NCBI GenBank assembly: GCA_964571295.1
Contig: CAZNAO010000001.1
Location: 3,749 to 67,748 of the forward strand
Direction of reading: 5' to 3'
Source of the DNA: an uncultured Gammaproteobacteria bacterium
Lineage (GTDB): Bacteria; Patescibacteriota; Patescibacteriia; Magasanikbacterales; UBA922
Length of the DNA: 64,000 nt
The notes below the pieces were generated by a model, which had not been told where the DNA came from, ran no database searches, and saw nothing but the letters and a program-made list of their open reading frames with translations. Shown here piece by piece: positions 199 to 38,736 of this stretch. Within the stretch, counting starts at the first letter, position 1; each line of letters opens with the position of its first letter. The position numbers and the translations under genes were made by a program.

Positions 199-283
199 CA
201 AAAAGAATCAAAAGTCGTACAGTGGAAAGCCGAAAGTCCGATTTTGACTTTATGTTACCACTTTCCCGACTTTTGACTCACAT

Positions 284-2439: not shown

Positions 2440-3561
2440 ATGTCTCACCTCAATCGACTACTTATTCTTTCTCTTTCTACTGGAGGTGGGCATATACAAG
2501 CTGCACGCGCACTTGAAAAGACTGTAGCGCGCGATTTTCCCCACATTGTCTGTCGGCACATTGATGTAGCTGATTTTATTACCCCTCTATTCAAAACTAC
2601 TACGATCGGAGGATACAGCTTCCTCATTTCACATTTACCACGTGTCTGGAAATCTCTATTTAAGCTTACCGACAATACACGTATCATGTCGGCATATCGC
2701 ACGCTCACCAACTATCTCAAAAAATTAAATTCATTCGATTTTTTACACGAAGTCGAAGCTTTTCGTCCGGATCACATTATTTGCACCCATTTCCTACCTG
2801 CGGAAATACTTGCCCATGCTCAAAAAAAGCAAATGAATAAAATTCCCCTTACTGAAATCATCACTGACTATGGAGTACATCCTGCATGGGTGATCGATGG
2901 CATTGACACCTATATCGTTGCGACACCTTCCATGAAACAATACTTAACAGACTCCTTTGCCATTCCTTCTTCAGCCATTCAAACTTTTGGTATACCCATC
3001 GACCCTGCATTTCAAAATTCGGAAGATCCCGTACATCTCAAATCTTCATATGGATTTTCTCCTACCAACCCACTTATTCTAGTTTTGGCAGGCGGGAGCG
3101 GATTAATCGATATAGTAGCCGTACTTGAACGGCTTTTCTCACATATCGCTTCTCCTGTAACGATCATTGCGGTTGCGGGAAACAATGAAGTTCTCCATAG
3201 ACGTATCACCAAGCTTACTCCTCCTTCATATATTACTTATCGTACCTACGGTTGGACTGACCGTATTCCTGAATTTATGCGTATGGCCTCGGTAGTCGTA
3301 AGTAAACCTGGGGGACTTACCACCACGGAATGTATGTCCCTTGGAGTACCCTTGATCGCAATTAACCCGATCCCTGGACAGGAGGAATTTAATGTTGGCT
3401 TCCTTTCAGAGGCCGGAAGAGGTGCATATGCACCAACCATTGAGGATATCTGTCCACTTCTCGATCGATATCTCTCAACAGACTATGTACCAAAAGACCG
3501 TGTTTCTTCACGGTCTGCTCACCAGATTATAGAATTTCTCGCTTCTCAGCCATTATCATAG
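2440..3561 (+). CDS. GT28-family glycosyltransferase (MGDG-synthase/UgtP-like diacylglycerol glycosyltransferase)
   Basis: Track ORF 2425 starts with TTG; the in-frame ATG is at 2440. N-terminal LILSLSTGGGHIQAARAL and C-terminal KPGGLTTTECMSLGVPLI...PGQEEFN are hallmarks of MurG/MGDG-synthase GT28 enzymes. Confidence 0.8.
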   Translation: MSHLNRLLILSLSTGGGHIQAARALEKTVARDFPHIVCRHIDVADFITPLFKTTTIGGYSFLISHLPRVWKSLFKLTDNTRIMSAYRTLTNYLKKLNSFDFLHEVEAFRPDHIICTHFLPAEILAHAQKKQMNKIPLTEIITDYGVHPAWVIDGIDTYIVATPSMKQYLTDSFAIPSSAIQTFGIPIDPAFQNSEDPVHLKSSYGFSPTNPLILVLAGGSGLIDIVAVLERLFSHIASPVTIIAVAGNNEVLHRRITKLTPPSYITYRTYGWTDRIPEFMRMASVVVSKPGGLTTTECMSLGVPLIAINPIPGQEEFNVGFLSEAGRGAYAPTIEDICPLLDRYLSTDYVPKDRVSSRSAHQIIEFLASQPLS

Positions 3562-4013
3562 AGATTGGGATCGTTGGGCGGAATATATGTGTCCGGATCT
3601 TGCCCTGGGGTCATCGGATTTTGTAGGCTGCTGTAGAGCCCGCTGTACACCGCATACACGATACTATATGCTCCCAAAATGATGACCAGTCCGATCACGC
3701 TATAGAGTAATATCTTTTTACCCCCTCCCATCTTTTCTTCATTACCGTTTGAGGTCATAATCATGAATCCCCCTGCTATCGCAAAGACTACGGCGATCGT
3801 ACCAATCACGCCCAGGGAAATTTTTATCAAGCTTGCCGCAATAACTCGAGGATCTCTTGATTCTCCTAAATTCGCACCTTTTTGTCCGGCAAATCCCTGG
3901 AGTTGCTGATTGATGTCTGCTTGAAGTCCCTGCGCATACGCATAGGAACTAATACCCAGTCCTAAAGCAATCACCACTGCACCTATCCATATTTTTTTTG
4001 TACGCCACGTCAT
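3546..4013 (-). CDS. TrbC/VirB2-type (T4SS-pilin-like) small membrane protein, paralog 1 of 11
   Basis: Track ORF starts with TTG at 4043; the ATG at 4013 sits 13 nt after the upstream gene's stop. It has a signal peptide, then ISLGVIGTIAVVFAIAGGFMIMTSNGNEEKMGGGKKILLYSVIGLVIILGAYSIV (two TM helices around a short charged loop), and a Pro/Asp-rich tail. Confidence 0.7.
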   Translation of the reverse strand: MTWRTKKIWIGAVVIALGLGISSYAYAQGLQADINQQLQGFAGQKGANLGESRDPRVIAASLIKISLGVIGTIAVVFAIAGGFMIMTSNGNEEKMGGGKKILLYSVIGLVIILGAYSIVYAVYSGLYSSLQNPMTPGQDPDTYIPPNDPNLYDNG

Positions 4014-4026
4014 ATTCTTACTCTCA

Positions 4027-4431
4027 TTACTTAAATCCTCCAACCTCAGAAGCGATTCTGGTTAACACAAAATTCGTAATGCTATACGCGCATAAAATGA
4101 TGATAAGACCGATTATCGCGTACTGAATGATTTTCTTAGCACCCCCCACCTTCTCATCATTCCCTGCCGCAGTAAACATGATAAAACCTGCATAAAAGAC
4201 TAGTAGTAAAAATATCGTTCCAAGAAGGGAAAGCACTATCTTTACCCCTTCGGCCACGGCAATTCTAGGATCCTTGGCTTCAGCGCCATATCCTGCCGCA
4301 CCAGACCCTGCATTCAATTGTCCCAATACATCCGGGCCCGTACCGATTACTTCTCGTACCGGTAGTGCACTGCCCAGACACACCAACCCGATCATCATCC
4401 CCACCACTGCACTGTTCCATTTTTTTTTCAT
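4027..4431 (-). CDS. TrbC/VirB2-type pilin-like membrane protein, paralog 2
   Basis: Signal peptide, then KIVLSLLGTIFLLLVFYAGFIMFTAAGNDEKVGGAKKIIQYAIIGLIIILCAYSITNFV. ATG confirmed at 4431. Confidence 0.75.
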   Translation of the reverse strand: MKKKWNSAVVGMMIGLVCLGSALPVREVIGTGPDVLGQLNAGSGAAGYGAEAKDPRIAVAEGVKIVLSLLGTIFLLLVFYAGFIMFTAAGNDEKVGGAKKIIQYAIIGLIIILCAYSITNFVLTRIASEVGGFK

Positions 4432-4440
4432 ATGATCGGA

Positions 4441-4839
4441 TTATGGTGAGGTACTTGTAGCAGTAAGCGCACCCTCCATCACTCGTGTTACCACAAAATT
4501 GGTAATACTATATGCCATGAGCAATATGATAAGACCAATAATTGACGTACTGATAATACTTTTTGCCTTCGTTACCGCCTCATCGTTCCCCGCCGCAGTC
4601 ATCCAGAGATATCCTGCGTAAATAATAAGTACCGTAAAAATAACCCCCAGAAGTGACAACAGAATCCTTATTGCTCGCCCCACATTCTCAGCAAATGTCG
4701 TCTCGGTTGCCGCAGCATATCCTGCCCGTCCCGCTGCCTGATCTACTCTTTCAGTACCCAAATCAATTGCGTAGACTCCCGGAACAAATACGAACACAAG
4801 CATGAGGGAGAGAAGGAACGTTTTGAGACGGAAATACAT
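4441..4839 (-). CDS. TrbC/VirB2-type pilin-like membrane protein, paralog 3
   Basis: Signal peptide, then IRILLSLLGVIFTVLIIYAGYLWMTAAGNDEAVTKAKSIISTSIIGLIILLMAYSITNFV. Confidence 0.75.
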   Translation of the reverse strand: MYFRLKTFLLSLMLVFVFVPGVYAIDLGTERVDQAAGRAGYAAATETTFAENVGRAIRILLSLLGVIFTVLIIYAGYLWMTAAGNDEAVTKAKSIISTSIIGLIILLMAYSITNFVVTRVMEGALTATSTSP

Positions 4840-4850
4840 AGTATTGAATT

Positions 4851-5237
4851 TTAATTCCCAAACTGTCGAGTTACGAATATTGTAATTGCGTATGCAGAAA
4901 CCACAATAAACAATCCCATGATTGAGGATTTAAAAATTTCTTTCGCTTTTGAAACCATTTCATCATTTCCTCGAGCAGTCATCCAGAGATATCCTGCGTA
5001 GACGGTAAGAATAAGAAATACCAACCCAATCATGCTTAATGCTACTTTGATTATATTTCCCACAATCACGCTGATATCACTTTCGACATTTCCACCGATC
5101 CCTTGTTGCACATTTTTGAGATTATCGTCCGCACTCCCCAATCCTTGTCCCCAGACATGAAAAGGGATCATACCCCACGTAAGCATTACCACGAAGAGAA
5201 GATGGTAGACTTTTTTACCTGTTTTCGATACTTGCAT
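4851..5237 (-). CDS. TrbC/VirB2-type pilin-like membrane protein, paralog 4
   Basis: Upstream Met codons of the track ORF overlap the neighbouring gene, so the start is taken at the ATG at 5237 (MQVSKTGKK...). Core: VALSMIGLVFLILTVYAGYLWMTARGNDEMVSKAKEIFKSSIMGLFIVVSAYAITIFV. Confidence 0.7.
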   Translation of the reverse strand: MQVSKTGKKVYHLLFVVMLTWGMIPFHVWGQGLGSADDNLKNVQQGIGGNVESDISVIVGNIIKVALSMIGLVFLILTVYAGYLWMTARGNDEMVSKAKEIFKSSIMGLFIVVSAYAITIFVTRQFGN

Positions 5238-5259
5238 ACGATAATCTGAAATTATGTTT

Positions 5260-5652
5260 TTATAGTCCGACAGCTCCGGTAACAAATGTCGAAATTGCAA
5301 ATCCCGAAACCGCAATCAAGAGCCCGATAATTGCAGCAATAATGGTTTTTTTCGCCTCGGCAATCTTTTCTTCCTCACCACGTGCGAGAAACCATATCAC
5401 TCCGGCATAGAGCATGAGCAGGAAAAATATGAGACCGGTGATTCCAAAAAACCACTGTGCCACTTCTCCCACATACGTTGCTACTTCGTTTTTTGGAAGT
5501 CCAGTTGGTGCTATGGCCTGATTCAGCATTCCCGGAGCATCTCCGATTTTCTTTGCCGCATTCGCGATTGTACTATGCATGCACGCTACCAACAGTCCAG
5601 TACCTAGTCCTGTATAAATACCCCACTGTTTCTTTGTTCTTTTGGAGAACAT
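5260..5652 (-). CDS. TrbC/VirB2-type pilin-like membrane protein, paralog 5
   Basis: Start taken at ATG 5652 (MFSKRTKK...), one nt after the upstream TAG stop. Core: FFGITGLIFFLLMLYAGVIWFLARGEEEKIAEAKKTIIAAIIGLLIAVSGFAISTFV. Confidence 0.7.
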   Translation of the reverse strand: MFSKRTKKQWGIYTGLGTGLLVACMHSTIANAAKKIGDAPGMLNQAIAPTGLPKNEVATYVGEVAQWFFGITGLIFFLLMLYAGVIWFLARGEEEKIAEAKKTIIAAIIGLLIAVSGFAISTFVTGAVGL

Positions 5653-5653
5653 A

Positions 5654-6286
5654 CTAAGAAGGTTGCCATCTACACTTTGTATCTCCATTGCAACCATCTT
5701 CATCATTATTCCACATTTCACATTTATGTCCTGAACTTGTTACCGCAACACAGGTGATTCCGTTTGCACCACCTGCCATACAATAACCCACACGATCATC
5801 GTCATTGGTGGTACTACAAATCACTCCTCCCTGCCCCTGAATTTGGGTACAATATTCTTGATCGACTACACAACGACCTTGCGCAGTCGGAGTTGGCGTT
5901 GGTGTCGTATTTCCTCCACCACCACCTGCATTTCCCCCCAGCTGGAATACGAAATTGGTCAAGGCATACGCTCCCATGACGATAATAATACCGATCGTCG
6001 CCCCGATAATCGTATTGAGTGCCTTTCCCGTCTGCTCACTGTTGCCTCGCGCGGTCATCCAGAGGATTCCTCCGTATAGTACTAACACAAAAAATAATAC
6101 CGAAATCATAGAAAGCAATGTTCCTATGATGTTTCCTGCAATGGTTGGGACACTATTGCCATAACCAGTGAGACCCGCGGCACCCGCCGTCTCATCCAAC
6201 CCGAAATTCGCTGCCATGACGGTCGGTACCATCACCATTGACACTGCAATACATAAGCCGGTAATAAATGGTGCGTATTTGCGCAT
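5654..6286 (-). CDS. TrbC/VirB2-type pilin-like protein with a C-terminal Gly/Thr/Pro linker and Cys-rich domain, paralog 6
   Basis: Signal peptide, the conserved core (LLSMISVLFFVLVLYGGILWMTARGNSEQTGKALNTIIGATIGIIIVMGAYALTNFV), then GGNAGGGGGNTTPTPTPTAQG and an ~70-aa module with 9 Cys. Confidence 0.7.
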   Translation of the reverse strand: MRKYAPFITGLCIAVSMVMVPTVMAANFGLDETAGAAGLTGYGNSVPTIAGNIIGTLLSMISVLFFVLVLYGGILWMTARGNSEQTGKALNTIIGATIGIIIVMGAYALTNFVFQLGGNAGGGGGNTTPTPTPTAQGRCVVDQEYCTQIQGQGGVICSTTNDDDRVGYCMAGGANGITCVAVTSSGHKCEMWNNDEDGCNGDTKCRWQPS

Positions 6287-6316
6287 ACGATAGAAAAAAT
6301 TATTATTCTATTTACG

Positions 6317-6733
6317 TTATCCAAAACTGGGTCCACACGAACCAGTTGTAGCGCATAGTGCCCGTATGATGTAGCTTGTAATCGCGTATGATGTGAAAAT
6401 AATGATAAGCCCGATCACCGCTGAAATCAACATTTTTTTTGCACTCCCTACTTTCTCATCATTCCCCCCTGCGGTCATCCAGGTGAAACCTGCATAGAGC
6501 ACGATACATACCGCAATAAGCCCAAGAAACGTGAGGACAAAATTGATAATTCTAATAGCTAAAATTCGAGGATCCTCTTTTGTCAACCCCGTACCTTCCC
6601 CACAATCGACCCCCAATATGTCATTTGGATTACTGCATCCCTGCGCGTACACCTGACTTCCCCATAGCAGTGCGAGCCCAAAAAACGCTGCGACTACCAG
6701 TAATGCACGAGTTTTTTGTATGTTCATATGCAT
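6317..6733 (-). CDS. TrbC/VirB2-type pilin-like membrane protein, paralog 7
   Basis: The N-terminal mature region has Cys pairs (QGCSNPNDILGVDCGEG). Core: VLTFLGLIAVCIVLYAGFTWMTAGGNDEKVGSAKKMLISAVIGLIIIFTSYAITSYI. Confidence 0.75.
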   Translation of the reverse strand: MHMNIQKTRALLVVAAFFGLALLWGSQVYAQGCSNPNDILGVDCGEGTGLTKEDPRILAIRIINFVLTFLGLIAVCIVLYAGFTWMTAGGNDEKVGSAKKMLISAVIGLIIIFTSYAITSYIIRALCATTGSCGPSFG

Positions 6734-6840
6734 GGATTGAATTACTCACAGTTTTCCCGGCTTATTGTAACATACTAAGTCAGGAAAACTGTGATACCAT
6801 ATACTGTTTGGCATATGGTTCACAATATTTGTTCTGAAAC

Positions 6841-7275
6841 TTACGGTGTAGTACCTTCGATAGCTGCACCGATATTTGAGACAAAGAACTGAGCGATTGC
6901 ATATGCAGAGAGAATGATCGCAAGACCAATCACTGATGCAATAATAATCTTCTTTGCTTCGCCTACCGCTTCGTCATTGCCACCTGCGGTCATCCATTTG
7001 AAACCTCCCCAGAGGATCAAAATCACTGCGATCAAACCAAGGAACGTCAACGCGAGATTGATCAATCTAATGATGACGATTCGTGCATCGGTTTCACCAG
7101 TAGTTACATTGATATTTTGTGCAACCGGATCCAAACCATAGTCCACGCCAGGATCTATCTGTGCGCTCGTTGTTGCCGGTGAGAGAGAGAACACGCTTAC
7201 CAAAGCAGCGACGCCTAATAGGAGCGCATTTCGATGCTTCAGTAATTTTGCTACTGTGTTATTCACACTTCTCAC
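6841..7275 (-). CDS. TrbC/VirB2-type pilin-like membrane protein, paralog 8
   Basis: GTG start with an AAAGGGGG SD-like element just upstream. Core: LALTFLGLIAVILILWGGFKWMTAGGNDEAVGEAKKIIIASVIGLAIILSAYAIAQFF. Confidence 0.7.
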   Translation of the reverse strand: MRSVNNTVAKLLKHRNALLLGVAALVSVFSLSPATTSAQIDPGVDYGLDPVAQNINVTTGETDARIVIIRLINLALTFLGLIAVILILWGGFKWMTAGGNDEAVGEAKKIIIASVIGLAIILSAYAIAQFFVSNIGAAIEGTTP

Positions 7276-7339
7276 CCCCTTTCAATGTATGATATTTTTT
7301 CATACGCGTCACGTATTTTACGTGATGTGTTATTTACAC

Positions 7340-7987
7340 TTAAGGTGCAGCCTGTAAAGTCTGCAAAATCAACGTAAGTATAGCATAGCTGCTGAAAACC
7401 ACAATAATACCTATCCCAGCCCACAACATTGCCTGCATTCCTTTTGCAATTTTTTCTGAATTTCCCGCGCTCGTAAGCCACTGAAATCCTCCATAGACAA
7501 ATACCACAAACGCAATCGTACCAATTATTCCTACCACCACTTTTACCGTATTACCGAGAATTATTTTGATATCAGTCTCACCAAGCGGATTTACCAACGA
7601 CACACAGTCTTGTCCAGTCGCACAGCTGCTCGGCGTGTTGACGCTTTCATTGCTTTCCCGCTGTATCTGAATCTGTCTATACTCCTCGCACGACTGTGGC
7701 GAAGGAAATTTTTGTCCTGCAGGACATGAAGCAATGTCGGTCTCTGACTGCGAACAAAGCTTAGTAGTTGTGATATAGCAACTTCCTATAGCACCAGGGA
7801 GGACGAGATTTGGATCTTGGCACGCTCCTTCTCCAGAACCGTCATCTGCACAAACCAAACCCTCAAGACATTGTTCATCTATTTCACACGGTTCACCATT
7901 ACCGGCCTGTGCCTTAACAGGCAGCGACTGTCCTACCCCCATTATTACGATGAGTAATGCGATACTGTTTTTTAGTACACTTTTCAT
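7340..7987 (-). CDS. TrbC/VirB2-type pilin-like protein with an N-terminal Cys-rich ectodomain, paralog 9
   Basis: Signal peptide, then an ~120-aa segment with about 12 Cys (PCEIDEQCLEGLVCADD..GACQDP...), then the conserved core VVGIIGTIAFVVFVYGGFQWLTSAGNSEKIAKGMQAMLWAGIGIIVVFSSYAIL. Confidence 0.7.
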   Translation of the reverse strand: MKSVLKNSIALLIVIMGVGQSLPVKAQAGNGEPCEIDEQCLEGLVCADDGSGEGACQDPNLVLPGAIGSCYITTTKLCSQSETDIASCPAGQKFPSPQSCEEYRQIQIQRESNESVNTPSSCATGQDCVSLVNPLGETDIKIILGNTVKVVVGIIGTIAFVVFVYGGFQWLTSAGNSEKIAKGMQAMLWAGIGIIVVFSSYAILTLILQTLQAAP

Positions 7988-7993
7988 ATGATT

Positions 7994-9202
7994 TTAAAAT
8001 GGAAGTAGACTCGACTGAATTCCAATCGCTTTTACCACAAATCCAATAAGGATATACGCAGAAAAAGTAATAATAAGTCCCAAGGTTGCCGCTACCAAGA
8101 TTTGCTTCCCCTGTCCCACTTTTTCCGCATTTCCAAATGACATGATCATGGTGATCCCGCCATACACGAAGAAGACAAAAGCGAGTCCTGCAATCACGGA
8201 GAAAAGCCACTCTGCCACCTTTACCCCCAACTCAACCAGGTCTTCTACATTTCGACATGACCCATCCCATGCACAGTCCGGAAGTGGACCATTGTAATTT
8301 GCAGGTTTTTGATGTGTACTTGATATCCACGCATCTATTGCCTCGGAAGTATTCACCTGCACGATCCTGTCTACACATTTTTCATTATCCCCTATCTTAC
8401 AGTGCAGCACTTTAGTACATGTATTTGGATCCAACTCACTACATTTGGTTGTATTATCTGACTTAGAGATGCATTTTGCACCTGTCTGCCACCACAGACA
8501 CGCCGCATCCGCATTACACTGCTCTACATTTGCTCCGTATTTACTTTGACAAGCTGTATTGGTCGGCGGATAATCATTGTTACCCGCTATTTTCATGAAA
8601 TAGACAAACACTTCATCCGGATTCTGGTCCAATTCACAAAACCAGTATCTGGTACGAAATAACTCGTCATCTCCCTCAATTGCGCTTTCTTGTGCAAAAT
8701 GATATTTGGTTACCAAATCATCTGGCTCATTGTCAGGATATGCACCGCTATTACAGCCGCGATCTGCGCTATTATTCCCTTCAAAAATCCACTCACCATT
8801 TTCTTCACCCGGACTCATTCTGAATTGTCTGATCACATCCTCATCACCCCATTCTGGACTTATGATTTTATTTCCCGTGACATTGACCCCATTGATGAGA
8901 TCTGTCCACTCCGCCCATGTTTTATCTTTTGCCACGGTTACACAAAAAAATTCACCTCGGTTATCTTTGGGATGGTGTGTCTGATAATCAAAATCCTCAT
9001 TAGTCTGATGACTTCCATTAAATTTTTCTCCATTTGGGCGAGTTATCTTAAAAATGGCAATTTGTTGATTTTCATTCGGTGCTACCGGACATTTGAATCC
9101 TTTTAAATCCACAGGATATTCAGCTGCTACGGCACTTCCTGTCCATGCACCAAATGCGAGAAGTAGTGCGATAATATATATGTTGACTTTTCTATATCTC
9201 AT
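7994..9202 (-). CDS. large TrbC/VirB2-type pilin-like fusion: unknown ~300-aa N-terminal ectodomain plus C-terminal pilin core, paralog 10
   Basis: Signal peptide and a long Cys-containing extracellular region, with C-terminal core WLFSVIAGLAFVFFVYGGITMIMSFGNAEKVGQGKQILVAATLGLIITFSAYILIGFV. The N-terminal domain is paralogous to that of 10695..11738 (YPVDLKGFKCPVAPNENQQIAIFK vs YTVNLGDFKCPQAPENNRKIAIFK). Confidence 0.7.
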   Translation of the reverse strand: MRYRKVNIYIIALLLAFGAWTGSAVAAEYPVDLKGFKCPVAPNENQQIAIFKITRPNGEKFNGSHQTNEDFDYQTHHPKDNRGEFFCVTVAKDKTWAEWTDLINGVNVTGNKIISPEWGDEDVIRQFRMSPGEENGEWIFEGNNSADRGCNSGAYPDNEPDDLVTKYHFAQESAIEGDDELFRTRYWFCELDQNPDEVFVYFMKIAGNNDYPPTNTACQSKYGANVEQCNADAACLWWQTGAKCISKSDNTTKCSELDPNTCTKVLHCKIGDNEKCVDRIVQVNTSEAIDAWISSTHQKPANYNGPLPDCAWDGSCRNVEDLVELGVKVAEWLFSVIAGLAFVFFVYGGITMIMSFGNAEKVGQGKQILVAATLGLIITFSAYILIGFVVKAIGIQSSLLPF

Positions 9203-9210
9203 ATATCAAA

Positions 9211-10596
9211 TCAATAGGTTTGCTGAATTTTTGCCGCCGTATTTATGATTACCGACTTATCTTTTCTCAGTGTTTCTTCCGGAGTATTTCCCTGTCTCAG
9301 AAACTCGGTTATCATATCTTTCAATGCAGTGGTCGCCACATCCACTTCTCGTCCTCGATACCAATTTTCTGCAAAGAGTGCCTGTGTCGCAAATGGACCC
9401 AGTGTTTCATTCTCCTGTTGTGCCGTAATCTGTTCCCGATACGGACTTGGCCTGAATGTGGCAGTCACGTATTGCTGCACTTTTTCTTTCGAGGTAATAA
9501 AATTCACGAAGCCCCATGCCTCATTCTGATTCTGGGATTTTTTCACGACTGATTCCACCCAATAATTGGCAACGTTTACCGGTGTTTCCGGATTGAGTTG
9601 TGGAATAGTTGCAATCTTGATCGCGAGCTGTGGAGCGCGCGCTTGCAATCTCGGATAATCATACGCGAATCCAAGGAAAAATGCCGTGCGACCTCTCACG
9701 AATTCGTCAAACGCATTTTGCATACGATCATTCCAGCTATACCGATCTGCGGTCGCTCGTGCGAAACCGGTATAGAAATCGAGCGCTCGGATGGTCGAGT
9801 GTGTCCGACTCTGATCTCGATCAACTCCAGAGGCAAATGCTACCGTATCCCCGTCTGTCACTTTTGACCCACTTTGAAGCATGAGTAGTGCAACAATGTC
9901 TGCAAAATTATCGATATTATTCGATGTGCCCATCGCGACTCCCGATTGGATTATATCGAGCGTAGCACTGAATTTCGTCGTCTGTTGCACCGCACGTACA
10001 AACTCATCCCAGGTCTTTGGAGCTTCCGCAATACCCGAGCGATCAAGAATCGTCTGATTGTAGAACAATGCAAGCGAATCAAGGGCCATCGGAAGGCCGA
10101 AAATACCTTCATTGATAATGATATCTTTTGCGACCGTCTGGACATACTGATTTCGAATGTCACGTTCCCGGGGAAGTGATACCGTATCCACCACCACTTC
10201 CTGCTCTTTGGTATATTGATTCTTGGTTATCAGACGTGGTAATTGTACCGATGCAGGTGCCGCAGCAAGTCTGCTTTCATTCTTCCTAAGCCACCGAACA
10301 TGCATCGATACGATATCCGGACCCACATCATCCGCAAGCGCATTGGTGAACAATGAATCGAATTCTTCATACCGTACTTGTCGAATATTGATCGTTACAT
10401 GCGGATAACGCGCTGAATACTCCACTGCATACGCTCGCAATTGTTCGACATCTCCGTAGACCGTCCAATAATTCAAAGTGATCGGACGGAGTGATGCCCG
10501 CTCTTCCTGATTCAATCCTTTACAACCAAAACCACTGAATATCAAAAGAACACTCAACACTCCCAAGGATAGTAGCGATGTAACTTTTTTCCTCAT
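9211..10596 (-). CDS. ABC-transporter extracellular solute-binding lipoprotein (family-1 SBP, sugar-type)
   Basis: Signal peptide with lipobox LIFSGFGC and a 461-aa periplasmic-binding-protein-like product. It lies between the two large pilin-fusion paralogs. Confidence 0.65.
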   Translation of the reverse strand: MRKKVTSLLSLGVLSVLLIFSGFGCKGLNQEERASLRPITLNYWTVYGDVEQLRAYAVEYSARYPHVTINIRQVRYEEFDSLFTNALADDVGPDIVSMHVRWLRKNESRLAAAPASVQLPRLITKNQYTKEQEVVVDTVSLPRERDIRNQYVQTVAKDIIINEGIFGLPMALDSLALFYNQTILDRSGIAEAPKTWDEFVRAVQQTTKFSATLDIIQSGVAMGTSNNIDNFADIVALLMLQSGSKVTDGDTVAFASGVDRDQSRTHSTIRALDFYTGFARATADRYSWNDRMQNAFDEFVRGRTAFFLGFAYDYPRLQARAPQLAIKIATIPQLNPETPVNVANYWVESVVKKSQNQNEAWGFVNFITSKEKVQQYVTATFRPSPYREQITAQQENETLGPFATQALFAENWYRGREVDVATTALKDMITEFLRQGNTPEETLRKDKSVIINTAAKIQQTY

Positions 10597-10611
10597 AACA
10601 TTCCATCTTAA

Positions 10612-10685
10612 GTCGAAAGTCTGTAAAGTCGAAAGTCTGTAAAGTAATTGGTGTTTTGGTTTATGGACTTTAAGACTTTACGGAC
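10612..10685. repeat. intergenic repeat: perfect tandem 16-mer GTCGAAAGTCTGTAAA x2 (10612-10643) plus the inverted, related GGACTTTAAGACTTTACGGAC (10665-10685)
   Basis: Read directly from the sequence. Related motifs occur at 12634-12694 and 31099-31170. Confidence 0.8.
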
Positions 10686-10694
10686 GTTATAGGC

Positions 10695-11738
10695 TCATTT
10701 AAATATTTCAAATATAAATCCTACCAGTGCGTAACTTGCAAAAATAAGCGCTACCCCCAGGGTCGCCCACACTATCGTATTTTGCGCTTTCGTCTGAGTT
10801 TCCGAATTTCCCCGGGCGGTCATCCACAATACTCCACCATAAATGATCATTATGAGTGCAATGGTACCGATTATCCCAAGCACCCCTCGAATGAGCATTC
10901 CCACAAACTGAGAAAGATCTGTCGTCTGAAGCAGATTCAATCTCCGGGCATATTCGGATAGATTACTTGTTCCACCCGTACTTGAACTCGTATTTCCTCC
11001 TGAATTTGAAGAAGGTGTCGAAGACGCGGAGGGGTCATCTGGCGCAGGATAGTCTTCTTTCTCCGCAATTTTCATAAAATACACAAAAGCCTGTTCAACC
11101 CCATGACCTTCATCACTGGGAATGCCGTAAAAATAAAATCTTACTCGCGGAGCAAGATTTGCCTCCTGCTCCGAAAGAGGTCCACACCCATACAAAAACG
11201 TAGGCAAACATGTTTGGGCAAAATGATACATTACATCGTTATCGTCCGGTTCATCATTGGCATCTGAGGATCCCATCACCTCGTTCCAACCATAACCAGT
11301 TCCGTCTGCTTGTCGTTCATCCTTCCACTCGTCGTCTACATAAAATTGTCTAATCACATCTTCATTTCCCCATTCAGTAGGAACTAGTTTTTGCCCCACA
11401 ATATCAACCCCCTGGGTCAGATCATTCCATGTCGCTGAGTTTCGATTCTTATCTACCGTTATGCAGAAAAATCGCCCGGAGTCGAGTTTCGGCTGATGTT
11501 CTACTGTATTATAATGCTCTGTCTCTTCTCCATCATCATCAAACTCTGTCGCACCATTGGCCACATCCGGGATAACCAATTTGAAAATCGCTATTTTTCT
11601 GTTGTTCTCCGGAGCCTGCGGACATTTAAAATCACCAAGATTGACTGTATACGGCTCTGTTGCGGCCACACTTCCCGTCCACGCACACCACAACATCATG
11701 GTTGCCGCGATATATGAATAAACTGCCGTTTTGGTCAT
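10695..11738 (-). CDS. large TrbC/VirB2-type pilin-like fusion with the shared N-terminal ectodomain, paralog 11
   Basis: Paralog of 7994..9202 across the N-terminal domain (GRFFCITVDKNRNSATWNDLTQGVDIVGQKLVPTEWGNEDVIRQF vs GEFFCVTVAKDKTWAEWTDLINGVNVTGNKIISPEWGDEDVIRQF). Ser/Thr/Gly-rich linker, then core VLGIIGTIALIMIIYGGVLWMTARGNSETQTKAQNTIVWATLGVALIFASYALVGFI. Confidence 0.7.
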   Translation of the reverse strand: MTKTAVYSYIAATMMLWCAWTGSVAATEPYTVNLGDFKCPQAPENNRKIAIFKLVIPDVANGATEFDDDGEETEHYNTVEHQPKLDSGRFFCITVDKNRNSATWNDLTQGVDIVGQKLVPTEWGNEDVIRQFYVDDEWKDERQADGTGYGWNEVMGSSDANDEPDDNDVMYHFAQTCLPTFLYGCGPLSEQEANLAPRVRFYFYGIPSDEGHGVEQAFVYFMKIAEKEDYPAPDDPSASSTPSSNSGGNTSSSTGGTSNLSEYARRLNLLQTTDLSQFVGMLIRGVLGIIGTIALIMIIYGGVLWMTARGNSETQTKAQNTIVWATLGVALIFASYALVGFIFEIFK

Positions 11739-12596: not shown

Positions 12597-12633
12597 AGAA
12601 ATGAATGTAATGGCGATAGTATAACATACCTTA

Positions 12634-12694
12634 GTCGAAAGTCATAACGTCCACAACGTCTAAAGTTCTGTCTATTGACTTTCTACTTTCGGCA
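12634..12694. repeat. intergenic motif cluster related to the 10612 and 31099 repeats (TAGTCGAAAGTCATAACGTCC ... GACTTTCTACTTTCGGC)
   Basis: Read directly. Shares the GTCGAAAGTC, ATAACGTCC and GACTTTC elements. Confidence 0.6.
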
Positions 12695-14101
12695 CTACTG
12701 TACCTCTTCCCAACTGATTAACTCATAGGTCGACCCTGTCGGAAATCCGGGTGGTGGATAATATTTCAAATTTCCATCATATACGTGATTTGTATAGACA
12801 TATCCTGCCACCACAACTCCTTGCGCAGTTACATATTTCCACCCTCCTCCTCGATAGGAAATCTGAGAACCGAAAAACGTAAGGGAATTTTTGAGTGCAA
12901 GTGATTGCCCCGAATAATTGTAGTTCGGCATGTAAATTTGGCCGGTTTGTGAAAGTGCCGCAGCATTGATTTCAAGATTGTTAGGAGCTTTATAGGGAAT
13001 AATAATATCACGCTGCGTGATGATACCTATCACATCATCACTTGATTTTTGATACTGGAGCAGGTTATTAGGTATAAAGACCTGATAATTACCTGCGATC
13101 GGGAAACTACCCGTACCGATCGTTACTCGACCATTTACTGTCCCTTCAACCCACAAGTTTTCTTCGACGAAAATCACGCCATTTGCAGGTAAAGAAAATG
13201 TGCTATTTGACGCATTACCTGAATTGAGTAAACTTTTTGACTTGATATCATAACAACGTCTACGCCATCGTGAATCATCATAGTCATAGAGGTAAAAACA
13301 ATCGGTCGCCGTGACCCGATATACGGTATATTGCGTATTATTGAATATGATTTGATAGCCCTCATCATTACCGAGTGGAGGGAAATACTTTCCCCCAGTT
13401 TGTGCCGCGGTGCGCAGTTCAGAAAGATCTGCAGAGACTGAGCCAAAATCTGCCGCAGGTACCGGAAACTTCCAATAATATTGTGGTCCGCCGTTTCCCC
13501 ATACACCCGGCTTTACCTGTCCATTGTAGTTGTATGTCGTCTTAGCACTTTTTACCCACGAATCAGTAGTACCATCAAATTTAATTCCACCATTTGACAT
13601 CACTTCTCCAAACACTTGTGTCGTGGCACTAAATGACATATCAGCATTTTCAATAAACGCACTATCCGTAAAAGATGGGAAGCCCAATCGAACACGGAGT
13701 GTGCGGTCACTAATACCATTCAACATGGAACCTTGGGATGCTACGGCGATTACCGATGAATTGGGCAAGGGTGAAGAAATAGTGAGAGCGAATGCGCCGA
13801 TCGTGTTATCGTTCTTATCAGAAAAATCATGTATATACGGACCGGGGGAACCGGTACCATCGGTAAAATCAGAGGTATTGTGAGCCAAATGCCATCGATA
13901 ATAATTAATCCCCGCCTCAGCAATATGAAACGCAGCATCTCTTCGATACACAGTCATCGACGTACGATGCTCGAACAATGCATACGCAAGCAATCCTAAT
14001 ACCATCAATACAAATGCAATTGACCCGAATACCATGACGATAAGGAGGGTAGTTCCTCGACTTCGTCGAGAAAGTCTAAAATTTGAAAGTCGTAACATCA
14101 T
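12695..14101 (-). CDS. PilX-like type IV pilus minor pilin/assembly protein (large, single N-terminal TM)
   Basis: Track ORF begins with TTG at 14116; the ATG is at 14101. N-terminus RSRGTTLLIVMVFGSIAFVLMVLGLLAYAL resembles PilX N-domains, with a large C-terminal extracellular part. Lies in the same operon as the prepilin-like genes upstream. Confidence 0.45.
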   Translation of the reverse strand: MMLRLSNFRLSRRSRGTTLLIVMVFGSIAFVLMVLGLLAYALFEHRTSMTVYRRDAAFHIAEAGINYYRWHLAHNTSDFTDGTGSPGPYIHDFSDKNDNTIGAFALTISSPLPNSSVIAVASQGSMLNGISDRTLRVRLGFPSFTDSAFIENADMSFSATTQVFGEVMSNGGIKFDGTTDSWVKSAKTTYNYNGQVKPGVWGNGGPQYYWKFPVPAADFGSVSADLSELRTAAQTGGKYFPPLGNDEGYQIIFNNTQYTVYRVTATDCFYLYDYDDSRWRRRCYDIKSKSLLNSGNASNSTFSLPANGVIFVEENLWVEGTVNGRVTIGTGSFPIAGNYQVFIPNNLLQYQKSSDDVIGIITQRDIIIPYKAPNNLEINAAALSQTGQIYMPNYNYSGQSLALKNSLTFFGSQISYRGGGWKYVTAQGVVVAGYVYTNHVYDGNLKYYPPPGFPTGSTYELISWEEVQ

Positions 14102-18735: not shown

Positions 18736-20532
18736 TTGAAATTTAAGTTGGATGAGATCATTTATCAAAAATATGATATACTATCTCCGTACATTGGATT
18801 TCATTCCATTTTTCTTATGTTACCCTTGGACGAACTCAAGCTTCTCTTGACCAAAAAATTCAAATTAAGCACGGGAGATATTACTACCTACCTTGAAGAA
18901 GCGAAGAGTCGAGGAAAGGATCTTGAAACATATCTTATTGAGAAAAATATACTCAAAGAGGACGTTCTTTACGATACGATTGCCGAGGTTTTTGGTTTTT
19001 CCCGAATCACCTTAAAAGGCAAAGATATCCCCCCTGAAGTCTTACACGAACTACCTGAAGCATTTGCTGAGGCACATACCATTATCGCATTCGAGAAAAC
19101 CGACCACATTCTTCGTGTTGCGCTTACCGATCCTACTGACATCCAAACTATCGAATTCATCAAGCGCAAGACACGAAAAGACGTGGAGGTGTTTGTTGCA
19201 ACCTCGCGAGATATCCGTGAAGCGCTTCGGAAATATCGGCTGGATCTGAAACAGGAGTTGAGTCAACCACTGTCCCATAATGATTCGACTGATCTCAAAA
19301 AAGCCGCTGAGGAGCTGCCTATTATCAATATCGTTAAAACTATTCTCGAGCATTCAGTATTTGAAAATTCAAGTGATATCCATATTGAACCGACCGAGGG
19401 TGACGTAGTCGTTCGATTTAGAATCGACGGCATTCTTCGGGAGATGATGCATTTACCAAAACCGGTACAAAATGGCATTGTCGCACGCATTAAAATTCTT
19501 TCAAACCTGAAGATTGACGAGCACATGATTCCACAAGATGGACGTTTCAAAATTTCAGTCCAGGGCGAAACATTATCGTTTCGCGTGTCGATCATTCCGG
19601 TCTATGACGGCGAAAAGATTGTCATGCGTCTTCTCCACGAAGGACAAAAACCTCTTACACTCGATGAACTCGGATTTTTACCCGGTATCAAAGAACTGGT
19701 GGAGGAGTCGATCGAGAAACCGCACGGCATGGTTCTCGTCACTGGTCCGACCGGATCTGGAAAAACAACCACACTCTATTCTCTTCTCGGCATGCTCAAT
19801 CAGCCAGATGTAAATATCTGCACTATCGAAGACCCGATCGAGTATCATGTGGGTGGTATTAATCAAAGCCAGATCAATCCTAAAGCCGGATTTACGTTTG
19901 CCTCAGGACTTCGCGCATTCCTCAGACAAGACCCAGATATTATTATGGTCGGAGAAATTCGTGACAAAGAAACTGCAGAAATTGCGATCCATGCCGCGAT
20001 GACTGGACACCTCGTACTTTCAACCCTCCACACCAACGACGCTCCGACCACGCTTCCACGCTTACTCGACATGGATATTCCACCGTTTTTAGTGGCATTC
20101 ACTTCAAATATCATTATTGCTCAGCGATTGGTCAGAAAAATTTGCCCGAATTGTAAAGAATCCTTCAAATTGAGTGGCAAAGAATTGAAGCAAATTCACA
20201 CACTTATTGACCGATCTACCATGACCTCGTTATTCAAACAATATAAAATTCCGTTTTCCGCAAAAGAAAAAACTTTGGAATCCATGACGTTTTACCGAGG
20301 TAAAGGGTGTAAGAAATGCAGTAATTCAGGATATAAAGGTCGTATTGGTATTTACGAAGTCATGGTAATTGACGAAGGACTCCAAAAAATTATCAATACG
20401 AATGCCACAGCGACCGATATCAAAACACACGCACTAAAACACGGTATGATTACCCTCTTTCAGGATGGATTTCTCAAGGCAAAACAAGGAATCACCACGA
20501 TTGAAGAAATCTTACGCGCAACCAAAGACTAG
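18736..20532 (+). CDS. pilB: type IV pilus assembly ATPase PilB (GspE family)
   Basis: GspE-N domains, Walker A VLVTGPTGSGKTTTLYS, Asp box, and a CxxC...CxxC zinc motif (CPNC...CKKC). The first codon is TTG; the alternative ATG is at 18817. Confidence 0.85.
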   Translation: MKFKLDEIIYQKYDILSPYIGFHSIFLMLPLDELKLLLTKKFKLSTGDITTYLEEAKSRGKDLETYLIEKNILKEDVLYDTIAEVFGFSRITLKGKDIPPEVLHELPEAFAEAHTIIAFEKTDHILRVALTDPTDIQTIEFIKRKTRKDVEVFVATSRDIREALRKYRLDLKQELSQPLSHNDSTDLKKAAEELPIINIVKTILEHSVFENSSDIHIEPTEGDVVVRFRIDGILREMMHLPKPVQNGIVARIKILSNLKIDEHMIPQDGRFKISVQGETLSFRVSIIPVYDGEKIVMRLLHEGQKPLTLDELGFLPGIKELVEESIEKPHGMVLVTGPTGSGKTTTLYSLLGMLNQPDVNICTIEDPIEYHVGGINQSQINPKAGFTFASGLRAFLRQDPDIIMVGEIRDKETAEIAIHAAMTGHLVLSTLHTNDAPTTLPRLLDMDIPPFLVAFTSNIIIAQRLVRKICPNCKESFKLSGKELKQIHTLIDRSTMTSLFKQYKIPFSAKEKTLESMTFYRGKGCKKCSNSGYKGRIGIYEVMVIDEGLQKIINTNATATDIKTHALKHGMITLFQDGFLKAKQGITTIEEILRATKD

Positions 20533-27540: not shown

Positions 27541-27662
27541 AGAAAAAGTTTAGCCTATAAAAGTCTGCTGATTATAGCGAAAATGGGTGAAATTGTCAAA
27601 GGTAAAAAATCCCTATAAAAAAACAATTGACCCTGCTATACTACCCCCAACCTATTACTTCT

Positions 27663-30359: not shown

Positions 30360-30494
30360 TCGCTCGTCAGTCTGGTGCAAATTTTGACCTCAAAAAAATA
30401 CGCGAGTTCGTTCGCGTATTTTTTGTATTTTTGATGAAGACCGGGAATACCTGCGGAAGCTCGTGCTTCTACAGGCATCCCGGCGGCAGATGAT

Positions 30495-30935: not shown

Positions 30936-31098
30936 CTCAAACAAAGTTTTATCCCTTTGCCGACATCGATGCTGCGGAAGCTACCTGCGTGTCCGGGATG
31001 TGTTCCCCCGAACCAACCCGTATCCACAAACATGATACCAGCCTATGCCCGCTCCTCCTTTATCGCGGACTGTATTGTGACTATAACATATTTTAGTT

Positions 31099-31170
31099 GG
31101 AAGTCATAAAGTCCATAACATCGAAAGAAAATCCAAATTACAATAAAGTCCTCGGTTTCCCAAGGACTTT
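31099..31170. repeat. intergenic motif cluster (GGAAGTCATAAAGTCCATAACATCGAAAG) plus a perfect hairpin AAAGTCCT-10 nt-AGGACTTT
   Basis: Read directly; related to the motifs at 10612-10685 and 12634-12694. Confidence 0.6.
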
Positions 31171-31192: not shown

Positions 31193-32446
31193 CTACAGAT
31201 GTTTGATATTCGATTTTTGATTCTTTTCTATCAAAATAAAATGCCCAAATCCGAAGCTGTGCACCGTCCAATCAATCATGATTCGAAGCTTACGCAATAC
31301 CCCTGGCATATACATGAGATATACCGTGCGGCGTAACCACCACGCAAACCAACCATAGAAGGTAAAGGAATTGAATATTGCAACTCCATACCAATCCCCA
31401 ACCGGCATGAGTTGCCCTTTTGATTTGAACACGAATTTCTCATAACTTCTTCCGGCAAGTGTCGCCGCAAGATGACGCCCGACATAGTGTCCGGCTTTGT
31501 GCGCCGCCTCTGCCAACTGTACGTACGGTTTTCCGGTAACCCCGTCCAATGCACACGCAATGTCACCGATCGCATAACATGACTCCTGGCCAGTCACCCG
31601 CAAATATTCATCCACTTTGATCCTACCTCGATCACAGCGCTCTTTGCCGACTAACTCTTCCCCCAGATTTGCAAATCCCGCGGACCACACCGTGATATCG
31701 CTTTCTAGTCTCTCGCCATTTTTCAGAACCACCGCATCTTTTGTGACTTCGATAACCGAAGTATTAAATCTGAATTCCACACCAAGTTTTTCTAGACGTT
31801 CATGGACATGCTTCTGTACCCCAGGCTTGAGAGAACCTAAAATAGTTGAGTTCGGTTCGATCACCCGAACAATCAGTTTCTTATGCGGATAGAGTTTTTT
31901 CAAATCACCGTTTTTGAGCATGCCATATTGCCCTGCGATTTCGACCCCCACGAATCCACCTCCTACGATCGTGATTATGCATTCTTCTTTCTCGTCATGC
32001 TCCATCTCTTCGACTAGTGCATATTTGAGATCGAGCGCGTCTTCAAGTGTGCGTACCTGATGCGTGTATTCCCGAGCACCTGGCACTCCATAAAAATTCA
32101 CCTCACTCCCAAGTGCGATAATACAATACTTGAATTCAATAATTCCGCGCGATGTACGTACTTGCTTTTTCTCATGATCAACACGTTCAACCGAAGCATT
32201 GATGAAGGTGTGGGGTGTATTGTACACCAGTTCACGAAGTGGAATTGAGGCGTGCGTTGGTTCTACTGAACCCGTTGCAACTTCATGTAACAGTGGAATA
32301 AACGTGAAATAATTATTTTGATCCACAATCGTAATATGCGCGTCCACTGCCACCTGTTTGAGTTGTTTCTTCAGTGTTCGGTATGCTTCATACCCACCGA
32401 TTCCGGCACCCAGGATCACAATATCTGTTTTGAACGATTCATGCAT
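31193..32446 (-). CDS. ndh: type II NADH dehydrogenase (NDH-2) / FAD-dependent pyridine nucleotide-disulfide oxidoreductase
   Basis: ATG at 32446 gives MHESFKTDIVILGAGIGGYEA (FAD Rossmann motif). A second GxGxxG is at IVGGGFVGVEIAG. The track start at 32491 is GTG. Confidence 0.8.
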   Translation of the reverse strand: MHESFKTDIVILGAGIGGYEAYRTLKKQLKQVAVDAHITIVDQNNYFTFIPLLHEVATGSVEPTHASIPLRELVYNTPHTFINASVERVDHEKKQVRTSRGIIEFKYCIIALGSEVNFYGVPGAREYTHQVRTLEDALDLKYALVEEMEHDEKEECIITIVGGGFVGVEIAGQYGMLKNGDLKKLYPHKKLIVRVIEPNSTILGSLKPGVQKHVHERLEKLGVEFRFNTSVIEVTKDAVVLKNGERLESDITVWSAGFANLGEELVGKERCDRGRIKVDEYLRVTGQESCYAIGDIACALDGVTGKPYVQLAEAAHKAGHYVGRHLAATLAGRSYEKFVFKSKGQLMPVGDWYGVAIFNSFTFYGWFAWWLRRTVYLMYMPGVLRKLRIMIDWTVHSFGFGHFILIEKNQKSNIKHL

Positions 32447-32568
32447 AGATGAGTTCCTAAAAATAACGTTTTCAATTATAGCAACGTGCACGGCCTGTGA
32501 CCAGAGGGGTGCACATGTATACTACACCAAACCAAAGTCCGCTCTTTCAAGCGGACTTTTAGGTATGG

Positions 32569-38642: not shown

Positions 38643-38736
38643 ACACCCTCCTTGATTGGGACCACATACTATACCACAATATACAGAAAAAGTCAATCCA
38701 CCCTTCGGCATCTGTCTATCCTGACTTAATCATGTT

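Follow-up and report, generated by a model that had tools for sequence, protein, structure and literature searches.

The GACTTT sites of the window, by which is meant the whole 64-kb stretch of DNA analysed here, belong to a real repeat family, which looks less like a new regulatory switch than like punctuation at the ends and starts of genes. The best explanation found, one whose chances we regard as evenly balanced, is that the sites are a REP-like dispersed family of transcript-boundary hairpins that grows by unit slippage and overlaps the next promoter. The ordinary parts are two predicted intrinsic terminators and two predicted extended -10 promoters. What is not ordinary is that those signals, together with a promoterless copy (A), are built of one 7-9-nt unit in inverted arrays with conserved ends. 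Judged from the comparison of sequences, the arrays also come and go at different gene boundaries among close relatives.

The window has a G+C content of 44%, ten tRNAs and a replication origin with dnaA and dnaN, and it belongs to a tiny uncultured bacterium resembling Candidatus Magasanikbacteria (Patescibacteria, CPR), the name borne by the best homologues of its galU and oxidoreductase genes. The conserved cluster around the GACTTT sites contains type IV pilus genes, rpsF-ssb-rpsR, pseudopilin-like genes and galU, and also a T4SS_pilin-like gene (10695-11738, minus strand), the gene of a lipoprotein solute-binding protein (SBP; 9211-10596, minus strand) and about ten T4SS_pilin paralogues; the genes near the arrays are mostly cell-surface or type IV pilus related. 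The start codon of the SBP gene is secure because the lipoprotein signal peptide opens there. Searches of the unannotated neighbouring proteins with NCBIfam and PADLOC gave no matches, and no transposase, RAYT or integrase is encoded in the 64 kb. One transcription factor alone was detected in the window, a member of the TrmB family with different palindromes of its own, and no candidate regulator adjoining the GACTTT sites was found there.

The first-pass annotation had singled out three intergenic regions with related short motifs (copies A, B and C below), and every motif that it quoted is present where it was placed. Further members lie at 205-279, 14070-14091 and 32534-32559. The members and their parts are as follows.

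10597-10694, no strand assigned: copy A, a 98-nt imperfect palindrome filling the whole gap between the T4SS_pilin-like and SBP genes, with pairs that reach the SBP start codon
10610-10645, plus strand: A-rich arm of copy A, with four AAAGTC units at spacings of 7/9/7/9 nt and, within them, a perfect tandem duplication of 16 nt
10662-10685, plus strand: T-rich arm of copy A, TATGGACTTTAAGACTTTACGGAC, bearing the family 17-mer on the plus strand
12597-12694, minus strand: copy B, a weak palindrome in the gap between the gene of a 473-aa pseudopilin-like protein and galU
12618-12645, minus strand: predicted galU promoter, ATGACT, 16-nt spacer and TATACT with a TG extension (promoter scan)
31145-31170, minus strand: terminator of copy C, AAAGTCCTTGGGAAACCGAGGACTTT then ATTGTAATTT, the predicted intrinsic terminator of the oxidoreductase gene (terminator scan)
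31080-31127, minus strand: promoter module of copy C, units GATGTTATGGACTTTATGACTTCCAACTAA and then ATGACT-16-TGTTATAGT, 40 nt beyond the terminator
32534-32559, minus strand: second predicted terminator, 3' of the DoxX gene (32569-33039), whose stem base AAAGTCC...GGACTTT is that of the first (terminator scan)
205-279, plus strand: tRNA-Arg palindrome, nested, with three AAAG(T/C)C units per arm
14070-14091, minus strand: two GACTTTC units at the 5' end of the gene of the 473-aa protein; the equivalent in L004 is a full 4+4-unit palindrome (8383-8495)

The suspicion that such hexamers might be no more frequent in intergenic DNA than expected is not borne out by the k-mer count. Half of the AAAGTC/GACTTT copies in the window (19 of 38) fall in its 6.6 kb of intergenic DNA, which makes up 10% of the window, against 5.0 expected (P ~1e-6). 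With this fourfold enrichment it is the second most enriched intergenic hexamer of the window, level with the -10 hexamer TATACT. Matches to GTCGAAAGTC with at most one mismatch number 11, against 4.3 +/- 1.8 expected, a count reached in none of 100 shuffles; three tandem GACTTT units were likewise seen in none of 100 shuffles. The alignment of B with C ranks first among 2450 intergenic pair comparisons (26, with 16 for the next best and 12 at the 99th percentile). That the three original sites are related is upheld; that they are one shared operator is not. At least six sites in the window carry GACTTT units, and the six listed are all intergenic or at gene edges; like REP sequences, they are intergenic imperfect palindromes with a common sequence at several unlinked sites. 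They also contain tandem direct copies beyond chance, as long simple-sequence repeats do, with TRF reporting periods of 7, 9 and 16 at 10610-10645. A DNA uptake sequence was considered and rejected, the hexamer's count over the whole window being 38 against about 31 expected, with the excess confined to intergenic DNA. CRISPR or TIGR-type arrays were also rejected, the units being 7-16 nt long, in at most 4-5 copies, without spacers and without associated genes.

Each arm of a family member is a short array of 7-9-nt units with the core AAAGTC in the 5' arm and GACTTT in the 3' arm. Units are spaced 7, 8, 9 or 11 nt apart across sites, with a variable register to the -10 element; whole elements are about 45 to 110 nt long, with loops of 12-33 nt. 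The position of the module relative to genes recurs: the A-rich arm starts a few nucleotides past the upstream stop codon and the T-rich arm reaches the next start codon or promoter. Conservation extends to the outer ends, with (T)TTAGTCGAAAGTC at the left and GACTTTCGACTAA at the right, in copies A and B of the window and in L004, L126, L137 and L143. The exact 13-mer (GACTTTCGACTAA) has three occurrences in the roughly 210 kb examined, where about 0.006 are expected, and is common to copy B, L004 and L126. In each it lies 19-20 nt upstream of a -10-like hexamer, at galU (window), pilB (L126) and the gene of a 460-aa pseudopilin-like protein (L004), and L137 provides a fourth case. The conserved 13-mer gives the family an element-like identity, which slippage alone does not explain. 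The arrays are identical in two other samples of the same strain and are therefore not hypervariable.

Copy A shows the array in its plainest form. The perfect tandem 16-mer that had been reported near 10612 is there (GTCGAAAGTCTGTAAA; TRF 10610-10645, period 16, 2.2 copies, 100% matches), and so is the inverted related copy, at 10662-10685; a repeat search pairs the arms 10616-10630 and 10674-10688 with 87% complementarity. The perfect 16-nt duplication is confined to one arm and has no match in the other. Read in gene direction (minus strand), the array starts 9 nt past the stop codon of the pilin-like gene and stops 13 nt before the SBP start, and runs GTCCGTAAAGTCTTAAAGTCC, about 30 nt, then (TTTACAGACTTTCGAC)x2. 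The family terminus is present at its outer ends in the form TTAAGTCG. The three sites do not share one orientation: the 17-mer TATGGACTTTAWGACTT lies on the plus strand in A and on the minus strand in B and C, and A is therefore inverted relative to B and C. Copy A has no -10 element between its arms and so no extended -10 promoter. As RNA it folds better on the plus (antisense) strand, at -35.9 kcal/mol (z -6.5), than on the sense strand, at -18.5 kcal/mol (z -2.5), because three wobble pairs fall on the antisense strand; as DNA it folds with z -4.9. It has no counterpart in L003, L004, L127 and L129, all of which retain the locus, and the gap in L005 and L128 holds unrelated sequence, which in L005 contains a terminator-like hairpin. 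The ends of A (CTATAAC ... GTTATGA) are, judged by eye, only loosely like the core sites of integron attC, where RYYYAAC ... GTTRRRY bracket an imperfect palindrome between promoterless cassettes close to intI; the genes flanking A are syntenic in relatives without it, and no integrase is encoded in the window.

Copies B and C combine the same units with ordinary signals. If an extended -10 promoter is taken to be TAnnnT with TG one base upstream and a -35-like hexamer 16-18 nt away, then ATGACT-16-TATACT (12645-12618) and ATGACT-16-TATAGT (31107-31080) are such promoters, both with TG, and their -35-like ATGACT is close to the TTGACA/TTGACT of other promoters in the window. In copy B, where GTCGAAAGTC recurs at 12634 and GACTTTC lies at 12677 as had been described, the A-rich arm CCGAAAGTAGAAAGTC begins 5 nt past the upstream stop codon. 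Its GAC-containing units run ...GACGTTGTGGACGTTATGACTTTCGACTAA and end in GACTTTCGACTAA, with GGTATGTTATACT after them, and the last unit of the T-rich arm provides the -35-like hexamer of the predicted galU promoter (ATGACT-16-TGTTATACT). The hairpin of B is weak (z -0.7), not better than shuffled sequence. The promoter module of C matches copy B (12620-12665) at 38 of 46 nt (83%), spacer included, and similarity between A and C extends over 18 nt only. The predicted C promoter would give a leader of about 140 nt before a 146-aa ORF (30935-30495). The first-pass annotation had set all sites 10-100 nt upstream of a start codon, which does not hold for C, at 164-235 nt upstream of the ATG at 30935.

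If an intrinsic terminator is taken to be a GC-containing stem of at least 5 bp with a loop of 3-8 nt and a T-rich tail, just past a stop codon, two are predicted among the family members. Both 31170-31145 and 32559-32534 (minus strand) have 11 pairs, five of them GC, a loop of 4 and a T-rich tail. The first contains the perfect hairpin already noted in copy C (AAAGTCCT/AGGACTTT, paired at 31145-31170), serves the pyridine-nucleotide oxidoreductase gene (31193-32446) and folds at -29.2 kcal/mol on the sense strand; the second is conserved in L142. The terminator scan found no terminator-like site in copies A (10597-10694) and B (12597-12694), which have loops of 19-33 nt and no T-run after them. 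The tRNA-Arg palindrome spans the -10 (TACAGT, 218-223) and the leader of tRNA-Arg(TCT) (284-356). It folds as RNA with z -4.6 and -4.9 and as DNA with z -4.2, and its left arm, lying in the promoter spacer, would not be transcribed.

The folds of A, of the tRNA-Arg palindrome and of the arrays in L004, L059 and L143 have z scores of -4.2 to -7.9 against shuffles. The antisense strand gives the better fold in copy A, in the tRNA-Arg palindrome and in the L004 array at 8383, which thus show no sign of mRNA-strand selection; no strand is consistently favoured over all instances, so folding alone cannot demonstrate action in mRNA. Strand asymmetry of folding was rejected as a test of an RNA role.

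The comparison with relatives covered seven genomes at the galU locus and two at the oxidoreductase locus. Protein identities divide the genomes into two clades, one with the window, L126/L142 and L003 and the other with L004, L005 and, more loosely, L127-L129. At galU all eight genomes keep the TATACT -10 and the leader, but the sequence upstream of the -10 turns over completely. Found there are a large palindrome of AAAGTC x4 / GACTTT x5 in L004, units of CTTTTAC type in L005, the near-twin of L004, units of GTTTTGAA in L003 and L128, a simple hairpin (GAAAGTCAAAAC-12 nt-GTTTTGACT) in L127, and an unrelated inverted repeat in L129. Each relative has some inverted repeat past the upstream stop codon at this site, differing in sequence. 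The GAC of the units lies anywhere from -25 to -34 relative to the -10 at the galU promoters, and a fixed -35 register was rejected. So was the idea that tandem T-rich units precede every extended -10 in the clade, since among 40 predicted promoters at 10 loci few are periodic, mainly those of galU. Where the window has site C, L142 shows a terminator with a T-tract that leads into a plain promoter, TTGACT-17-GATAGT, and in L143 a CTTTTAA x3 array and TGTGTTATAGT come after a terminator; both terminators are canonical and unrelated in sequence to that of the window.

GACTTT arrays are found elsewhere in the same relatives. L126 has one in the pilB/rpsF divergent region, with GACTTTCGACTAA 19 nt upstream of the pilB TATACT, and L004 has one upstream of the gene of the 460-aa protein. 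L143 has one in a convergent gap, starting 3 nt past the polA stop codon, which folds as RNA at -30 to -35 kcal/mol (z about -7). The convergent position makes a promoter or operator role implausible there. In the orthologous gap of the window stands a canonical bidirectional terminator (30393-30424), and no other single finding speaks as strongly for a transcript-end role as this equivalence of position between array and terminator. The GACTTT hexamer heads the list of intergenic hexamers in L126 and L004, is near the top in the window, and is nearly absent from the intergenic DNA of L003, L005 and L127-L129. The array sites are non-orthologous (A in the window, the pilB/rpsF gap in L126, the end of polA in L143), and their distribution over the tree is patchy. 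L004 and L005 have 92-98% protein identity, yet another array palindrome has longer arms on both sides in L004 than in L005, and other gaps of these two genomes hold arrays of quite different units (TTGAAGA, TTAACAA, TTAGAATAA).

From these observations we infer the following mode of action. Once transcribed, the palindrome would fold into a stem-loop close to or at the 3' terminus of the message from the upstream gene, where it could serve as a terminator or attenuator or, much like REP elements, hold back 3' exonucleases. If a promoter comes next, as in B and C, the last TnGACTTT unit may double as the -35-like hexamer of the extended -10 promoter. The arms would grow and shrink through slipped-strand duplication of units, for example in the 16-nt duplication of A and the two-armed lengthening in L004 relative to L005, and copies would emerge at new gaps; the family would therefore be patchy in close relatives and not tied to one set of genes. 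Several findings fit this model poorly. Copies A and B lack the features of intrinsic terminators and the hairpin of B is no better than shuffles; the left arm of the tRNA-Arg palindrome would not be transcribed, and that palindrome, A and the L004 8383 array fold better antisense. The 13-mer at 19-20 nt from a -10-like hexamer at three non-orthologous genes and the 46-nt match of B with C hint at sequence-specific constraint in addition to structure, and the window encodes no RAYT-type or other transposase.

Similar arrays occur in further phyla. When species-representative genomes were scanned for three GACTTT units in tandem, there were at least 120 matches, to be read as examples and not as a census. 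Dominant among the matches listed are Cyanobacteria, with heptamer arrays of GACTTTT, and Bacteroidota, with numerous arrays; others are found in Acidobacteriota, Verrucomicrobiota and about ten CPR genomes. The full inverted architecture is present at at least 10 loci among the matches listed, 10 of 10 of them intergenic, and where an ORF flanks closely the array ends 8-21 nt from it. These loci include several in Flavobacterium (with an orthologous pair, L026/L046) and the Patescibacteria contig L059, which folds as DNA with z -7.9; gaps between co-directional genes are occupied by such arrays in Flavobacterium and also in other phyla. The same ...TTTCGACTA closes several of the Flavobacterium arrays and that of a Flavobacteria-like metH-metF gap (L136), a likeness of termini across phyla that may in part be an effect of the search pattern. 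A metagenome scan for GACTTTCGACTAA with an extended -10 returned 12 loci, mostly chance, with L137 as a clear new member and L136 as a Flavobacteria-like array. Rfam at its gathering score found only tRNAs in the whole window, and a permissive search (E up to 1-5) of the three sites gave nothing credible; on the array-bearing loci of other phyla Rfam had no match at the arrays, with unrelated SAM and Flavo-1 elsewhere. ARAGORN found no tmRNA or tRNA at the sites, and blastn of copy A against phage and plasmid collections found no match.

A bolder and improbable reading of the distribution is an undescribed class of non-coding palindromic elements in several phyla (Patescibacteria, Bacteroidota, perhaps Acidobacteriota and Verrucomicrobiota), with tandem heptamer-like arms and TTAGTCGAAAGTC termini, spread to new intergenic sites by an enzyme or by templated hairpin expansion and acting as portable terminator-plus-promoter punctuation of compact genomes. 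If such a self-propagating class, also present in Bacteroidota, were real, it would show how promoters and transcript-end hairpins are made and reshuffled in very small genomes.

The arrays may instead be a non-functional by-product, in which slippage produces heptamers in AT-rich intergenic DNA, template switching makes the palindromes, -35-like TTGACTTT or terminator stems act as seeds, and the likeness of copies comes from the seed and not from function. The unmatched duplication in one arm of A, the fast turnover between genomes of 92-98% protein identity, the quite different units in gaps of L004 and L005 and the wide occurrence, among the matches listed, of GACTTTT heptamer arrays in Cyanobacteria and Bacteroidota are all as this reading would have them. 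PMC4679880 summarises a report (Mrazek 2007) that in many bacteria no long simple repeats are commoner than heptanucleotides, which are put down to slippage. The by-product reading is nevertheless unlikely: the conserved 13-nt termini recur in five genomes and even in Flavobacteria, the arms mirror each other's unit spacing and fold far better than shuffles, the arrays start a few nucleotides past stops and finish just before starts or -10 elements, and the identity of arrays in two other samples of the strain does not suggest hypervariability.

Of the two readings offered by the first-pass annotation, the dispersed repeat fits best, given the non-orthologous recurrence, the patchy presence and the copy in a convergent gap, and a shared operator is not favoured. 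In the latter, a DNA-binding protein would read GACTTT units as operator or activator arrays at promoters and co-regulate galU, SBP, pseudopilin, pilB and tRNA-Arg. Such a protein could account for a unit found at six or more intergenic sites in 64 kb, for the near-constant distance of GACTTTCGACTAA from -10-like hexamers at three or four unrelated genes, for the 38 of 46 nt, spacer included, common to B and C, for a palindrome (205-279) that extends over the -10 and into the tRNA-Arg leader, and for neighbours that are mostly cell-surface or type IV pilus genes. It is quite unlikely all the same, because the orthologous promoters of galU and the 146-aa gene in sister genomes carry GTTTTGAA, CTTTTAA, plain TTGACT or unrelated hairpins in place of the array, unit spacing varies from 7 to 11 nt and GAC from -25 to -34 relative to the -10, copy A is inverted and without a promoter, and part of C is merely an intrinsic terminator. 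The L143 copy in a convergent gap and the presence of the same arrays in Flavobacteria between genes that are unrelated, metH and metF for instance, also argue against it, as do the lack of an adjacent candidate regulator in the window and the different palindromes of its TrmB-family protein.

Very unlikely is a true MITE or REPIN with terminal inverted repeats, mobilised in trans by a transposase elsewhere and with Correia-like outward promoter or terminator activity: the arms do resemble terminal inverted repeats with conserved ends (AGTCGAAAGTC / GACTTTCGACT), presence varies at otherwise syntenic sites, A is inverted relative to B and C and the -35-like end abuts -10 elements, but interiors are unconserved (46 nt in the best pair, B-C, and 18 nt in A-C, with lengths of about 45 to 110 nt), inspection by eye showed no target-site duplication, the genuine MITE-like element of L004, with two near-identical 140-bp copies, looks quite different, and with full-length similarity between copies lacking, as well as any phage or plasmid match or a transposase, RAYT or integrase in the 64-kb window, the proposed terminal repeat of a known IS or MITE was rejected.

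The finding is modest, real and partly explained by ordinary features. Gene-expression signals of the CPR are almost uncharted and the organisms are hard to grow, and the case separates ordinary signals (extended -10 promoters and intrinsic terminators) from a real repeat family at gene boundaries. It should aid the annotation of CPR genomes, and warns against over-calling regulons from common intergenic motifs. The remaining puzzle is the recurrence of the unit and terminus within some genomes and apparently across phyla.

Among known systems, the REP/BIME sequences of enterobacteria are proposed stabilisers of mRNA 3' ends or weak terminators; in the classic example the gene upstream is malE, for a solute-binding protein, and the one downstream malF. 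REP, BIME and REPIN sequences and the GACTTT arrays are alike in being short imperfect intergenic palindromes at gene 3' ends and between co-directional genes of operons, and REP/BIME are likewise a dispersed family with conserved sequence and variation between relatives. Unlike REP, the GACTTT arms are tandem 7-9-nt arrays of variable copy number with loops of 12-33 nt, some copies are fused to a promoter, and no RAYT gene is found in the 64-kb window. The Correia elements of Neisseria are MITEs with promoter, terminator and RNase III-site activity, and have a conserved body of 100-155 bp, 26-bp terminal repeats and a TA duplication. They share with the arrays a small size, intergenic inverted repeats, ends able to create -35 and -10 elements, hairpin transcripts and differences in presence or absence; however, the GACTTT elements have only the units and ends of about 13 nt in common. 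Intrinsic terminators, including bidirectional ones with paired A- and T-tracts, fit 31145-31170 and 32534-32559, and the L143 array stands at the position of a canonical terminator, but in A, B and the large arrays the stems are AU-rich and interrupted, the loops are long and a T-run at the end is lacking.

Two kinds of short-unit array were also compared. The omega-type ribbon-helix-helix repressors of plasmids bind heptad arrays, and Fur boxes are hexamer arrays; their units are contiguous, with a fixed period of 7 bp (or 6 bp), and conserved at orthologous promoters. The GACTTT arrays resemble them in repeating short non-palindromic units, direct and inverted, at promoters, but the window sites do not have contiguous units of fixed period conserved at orthologous promoters, spacing and register being variable and orthologous sites unconserved. 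The TAACTGA repeats of Beggiatoaceae, Cyanobacteria and Bacteroidetes are intergenic direct repeats of a heptamer with a sporadic distribution, for which slippage was proposed as the origin, and comprise 169 direct sets against one inverted (PMC4679880). Both these and the cyanobacterial STRR, like the GACTTT arrays, consist of intergenic tandem units of about 7 nt that often end a few nucleotides before a start codon and occur sporadically across phyla; the heptamer repeats are almost all direct copies of one exact unit, whereas the GACTTT arrays are inverted pairs of degenerate units with variable spacing. With no match in Rfam or among phages and plasmids and no transposase, RAYT or integrase in the window, the arrays are therefore taken as a variation on what is known from REP-like palindromes, simple-sequence heptamer arrays and the punctuation by terminators and promoters, and not as a categorically new system.

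Genes lying immediately 3' of the GACTTT modules, the intergenic inverted arrays of 7-9-nt AAAGTC/GACTTT units, lack a clear Shine-Dalgarno sequence; these are galU, the lipoprotein solute-binding protein (SBP) gene and, in L004, a galU-locus sequence from a related genome, the pseudopilin-like 460-aa gene. Strong AGGAGG-type sites are found at many other genes of the window. The sequences at the three genes, together with two lone copies of GACTTT at promoters, are as follows.

12596, minus strand: start of galU, CATTCATTTCTATG
10596, minus strand: start of the SBP gene, GATGGAATGTTATG
L004 8496: the 460-aa gene, AATCCTCTTATG
1766-1772: lone GACTTT at the tRNA-His promoter, TATACTCGACTTT, directly 3' of the -10
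27560-27565: lone GACTTT at the trigger-factor promoter, TATAATCAGCAGACTTTT, directly 3' of the -10

Both lone copies are probably incidental, because the one at the tRNA-His promoter is not conserved in L004.

The 146-aa ORF (30935-30495) is preceded by a leader that in the window is GC-rich and about 140 nt long, and a stem-loop within this leader is kept in relatives.

31040-31074, minus strand: leader stem-loop, ACAGTCCGC-GATAAAGGAGGA-GCGGGC

The stem-loop lies immediately 3' of the -10, its loop exposes the Shine-Dalgarno-like AAGGAGGA, and counterparts are present at the oxidoreductase locus of two relatives, L142 (~7300-7340) and L143 (~7345-7385), the latter having a CCTACT/AGTGGG stem in which the changes are apparently compensatory. 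An Rfam search with the leader gave no match; the structure may be a cis-regulatory RNA.

Array palindromes of this clade seem to expand symmetrically, since the two insertions that distinguish the TTGAAGA/TCTTCAA array palindrome of L004 (14747-14954) from that of L005 (14624-14779), another galU-locus relative with proteins 92-98% identical to those of L004, lengthen both arms. L004 also carries a palindromic MITE-like element, gtgtcattccgag...ctcggaatgacac, some 140 bp long; its two copies (~5330-5470 and ~19775-19890) are near-identical and lie less than 20 kb apart, and one of them occupies a site that is empty in L005. A related fragment is present in L143, and the element was not seen in the parts of the window read.

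Further palindromes and repeats occur in the window.

6746-6794: 19-nt inverted repeat, TCACAGTTTTCCCGGCTTA / TAAGTCAGGAAAACTGTGA, upstream of a T4SS_pilin-like gene
38735-38807: mutually related palindromes, TTGTAAATTTAAATTTAC and TTGTAAATATAAATTTACAA, in a divergent gap
33157-33196: 21-nt unit, CTGAATTTCTTCAATTTCACC, perfectly duplicated in tandem (1.9 copies) within a DUF1003 gene

About ten T4SS_pilin (PF18895) paralogues stand in a row (3546-9202 and 10695-11738) with the SBP gene embedded among them, an arrangement shared by every relative fetched, and hairpins resembling the 19-nt repeat ('cagagttttc..ggc..') occupy the orthologous gaps in L003, L004 and L005, all from the galU locus. 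The palindrome pair adjoins a TrmB-family regulator gene (38810-39556) and probably represents that regulator's own operators. The duplication in the DUF1003 gene keeps the frame, its length being seven codons.

The chromosomal replication origin is at 43498-43647 and 45037-45282, around dnaA.

43648-45036: dnaA
45283-46410: dnaN

Both intervals flanking dnaA contain clusters of DnaA-box-like sequences (TTATCCACA/ATCCACA), and the cumulative GC-skew of the window reaches its minimum at ~44 kb.
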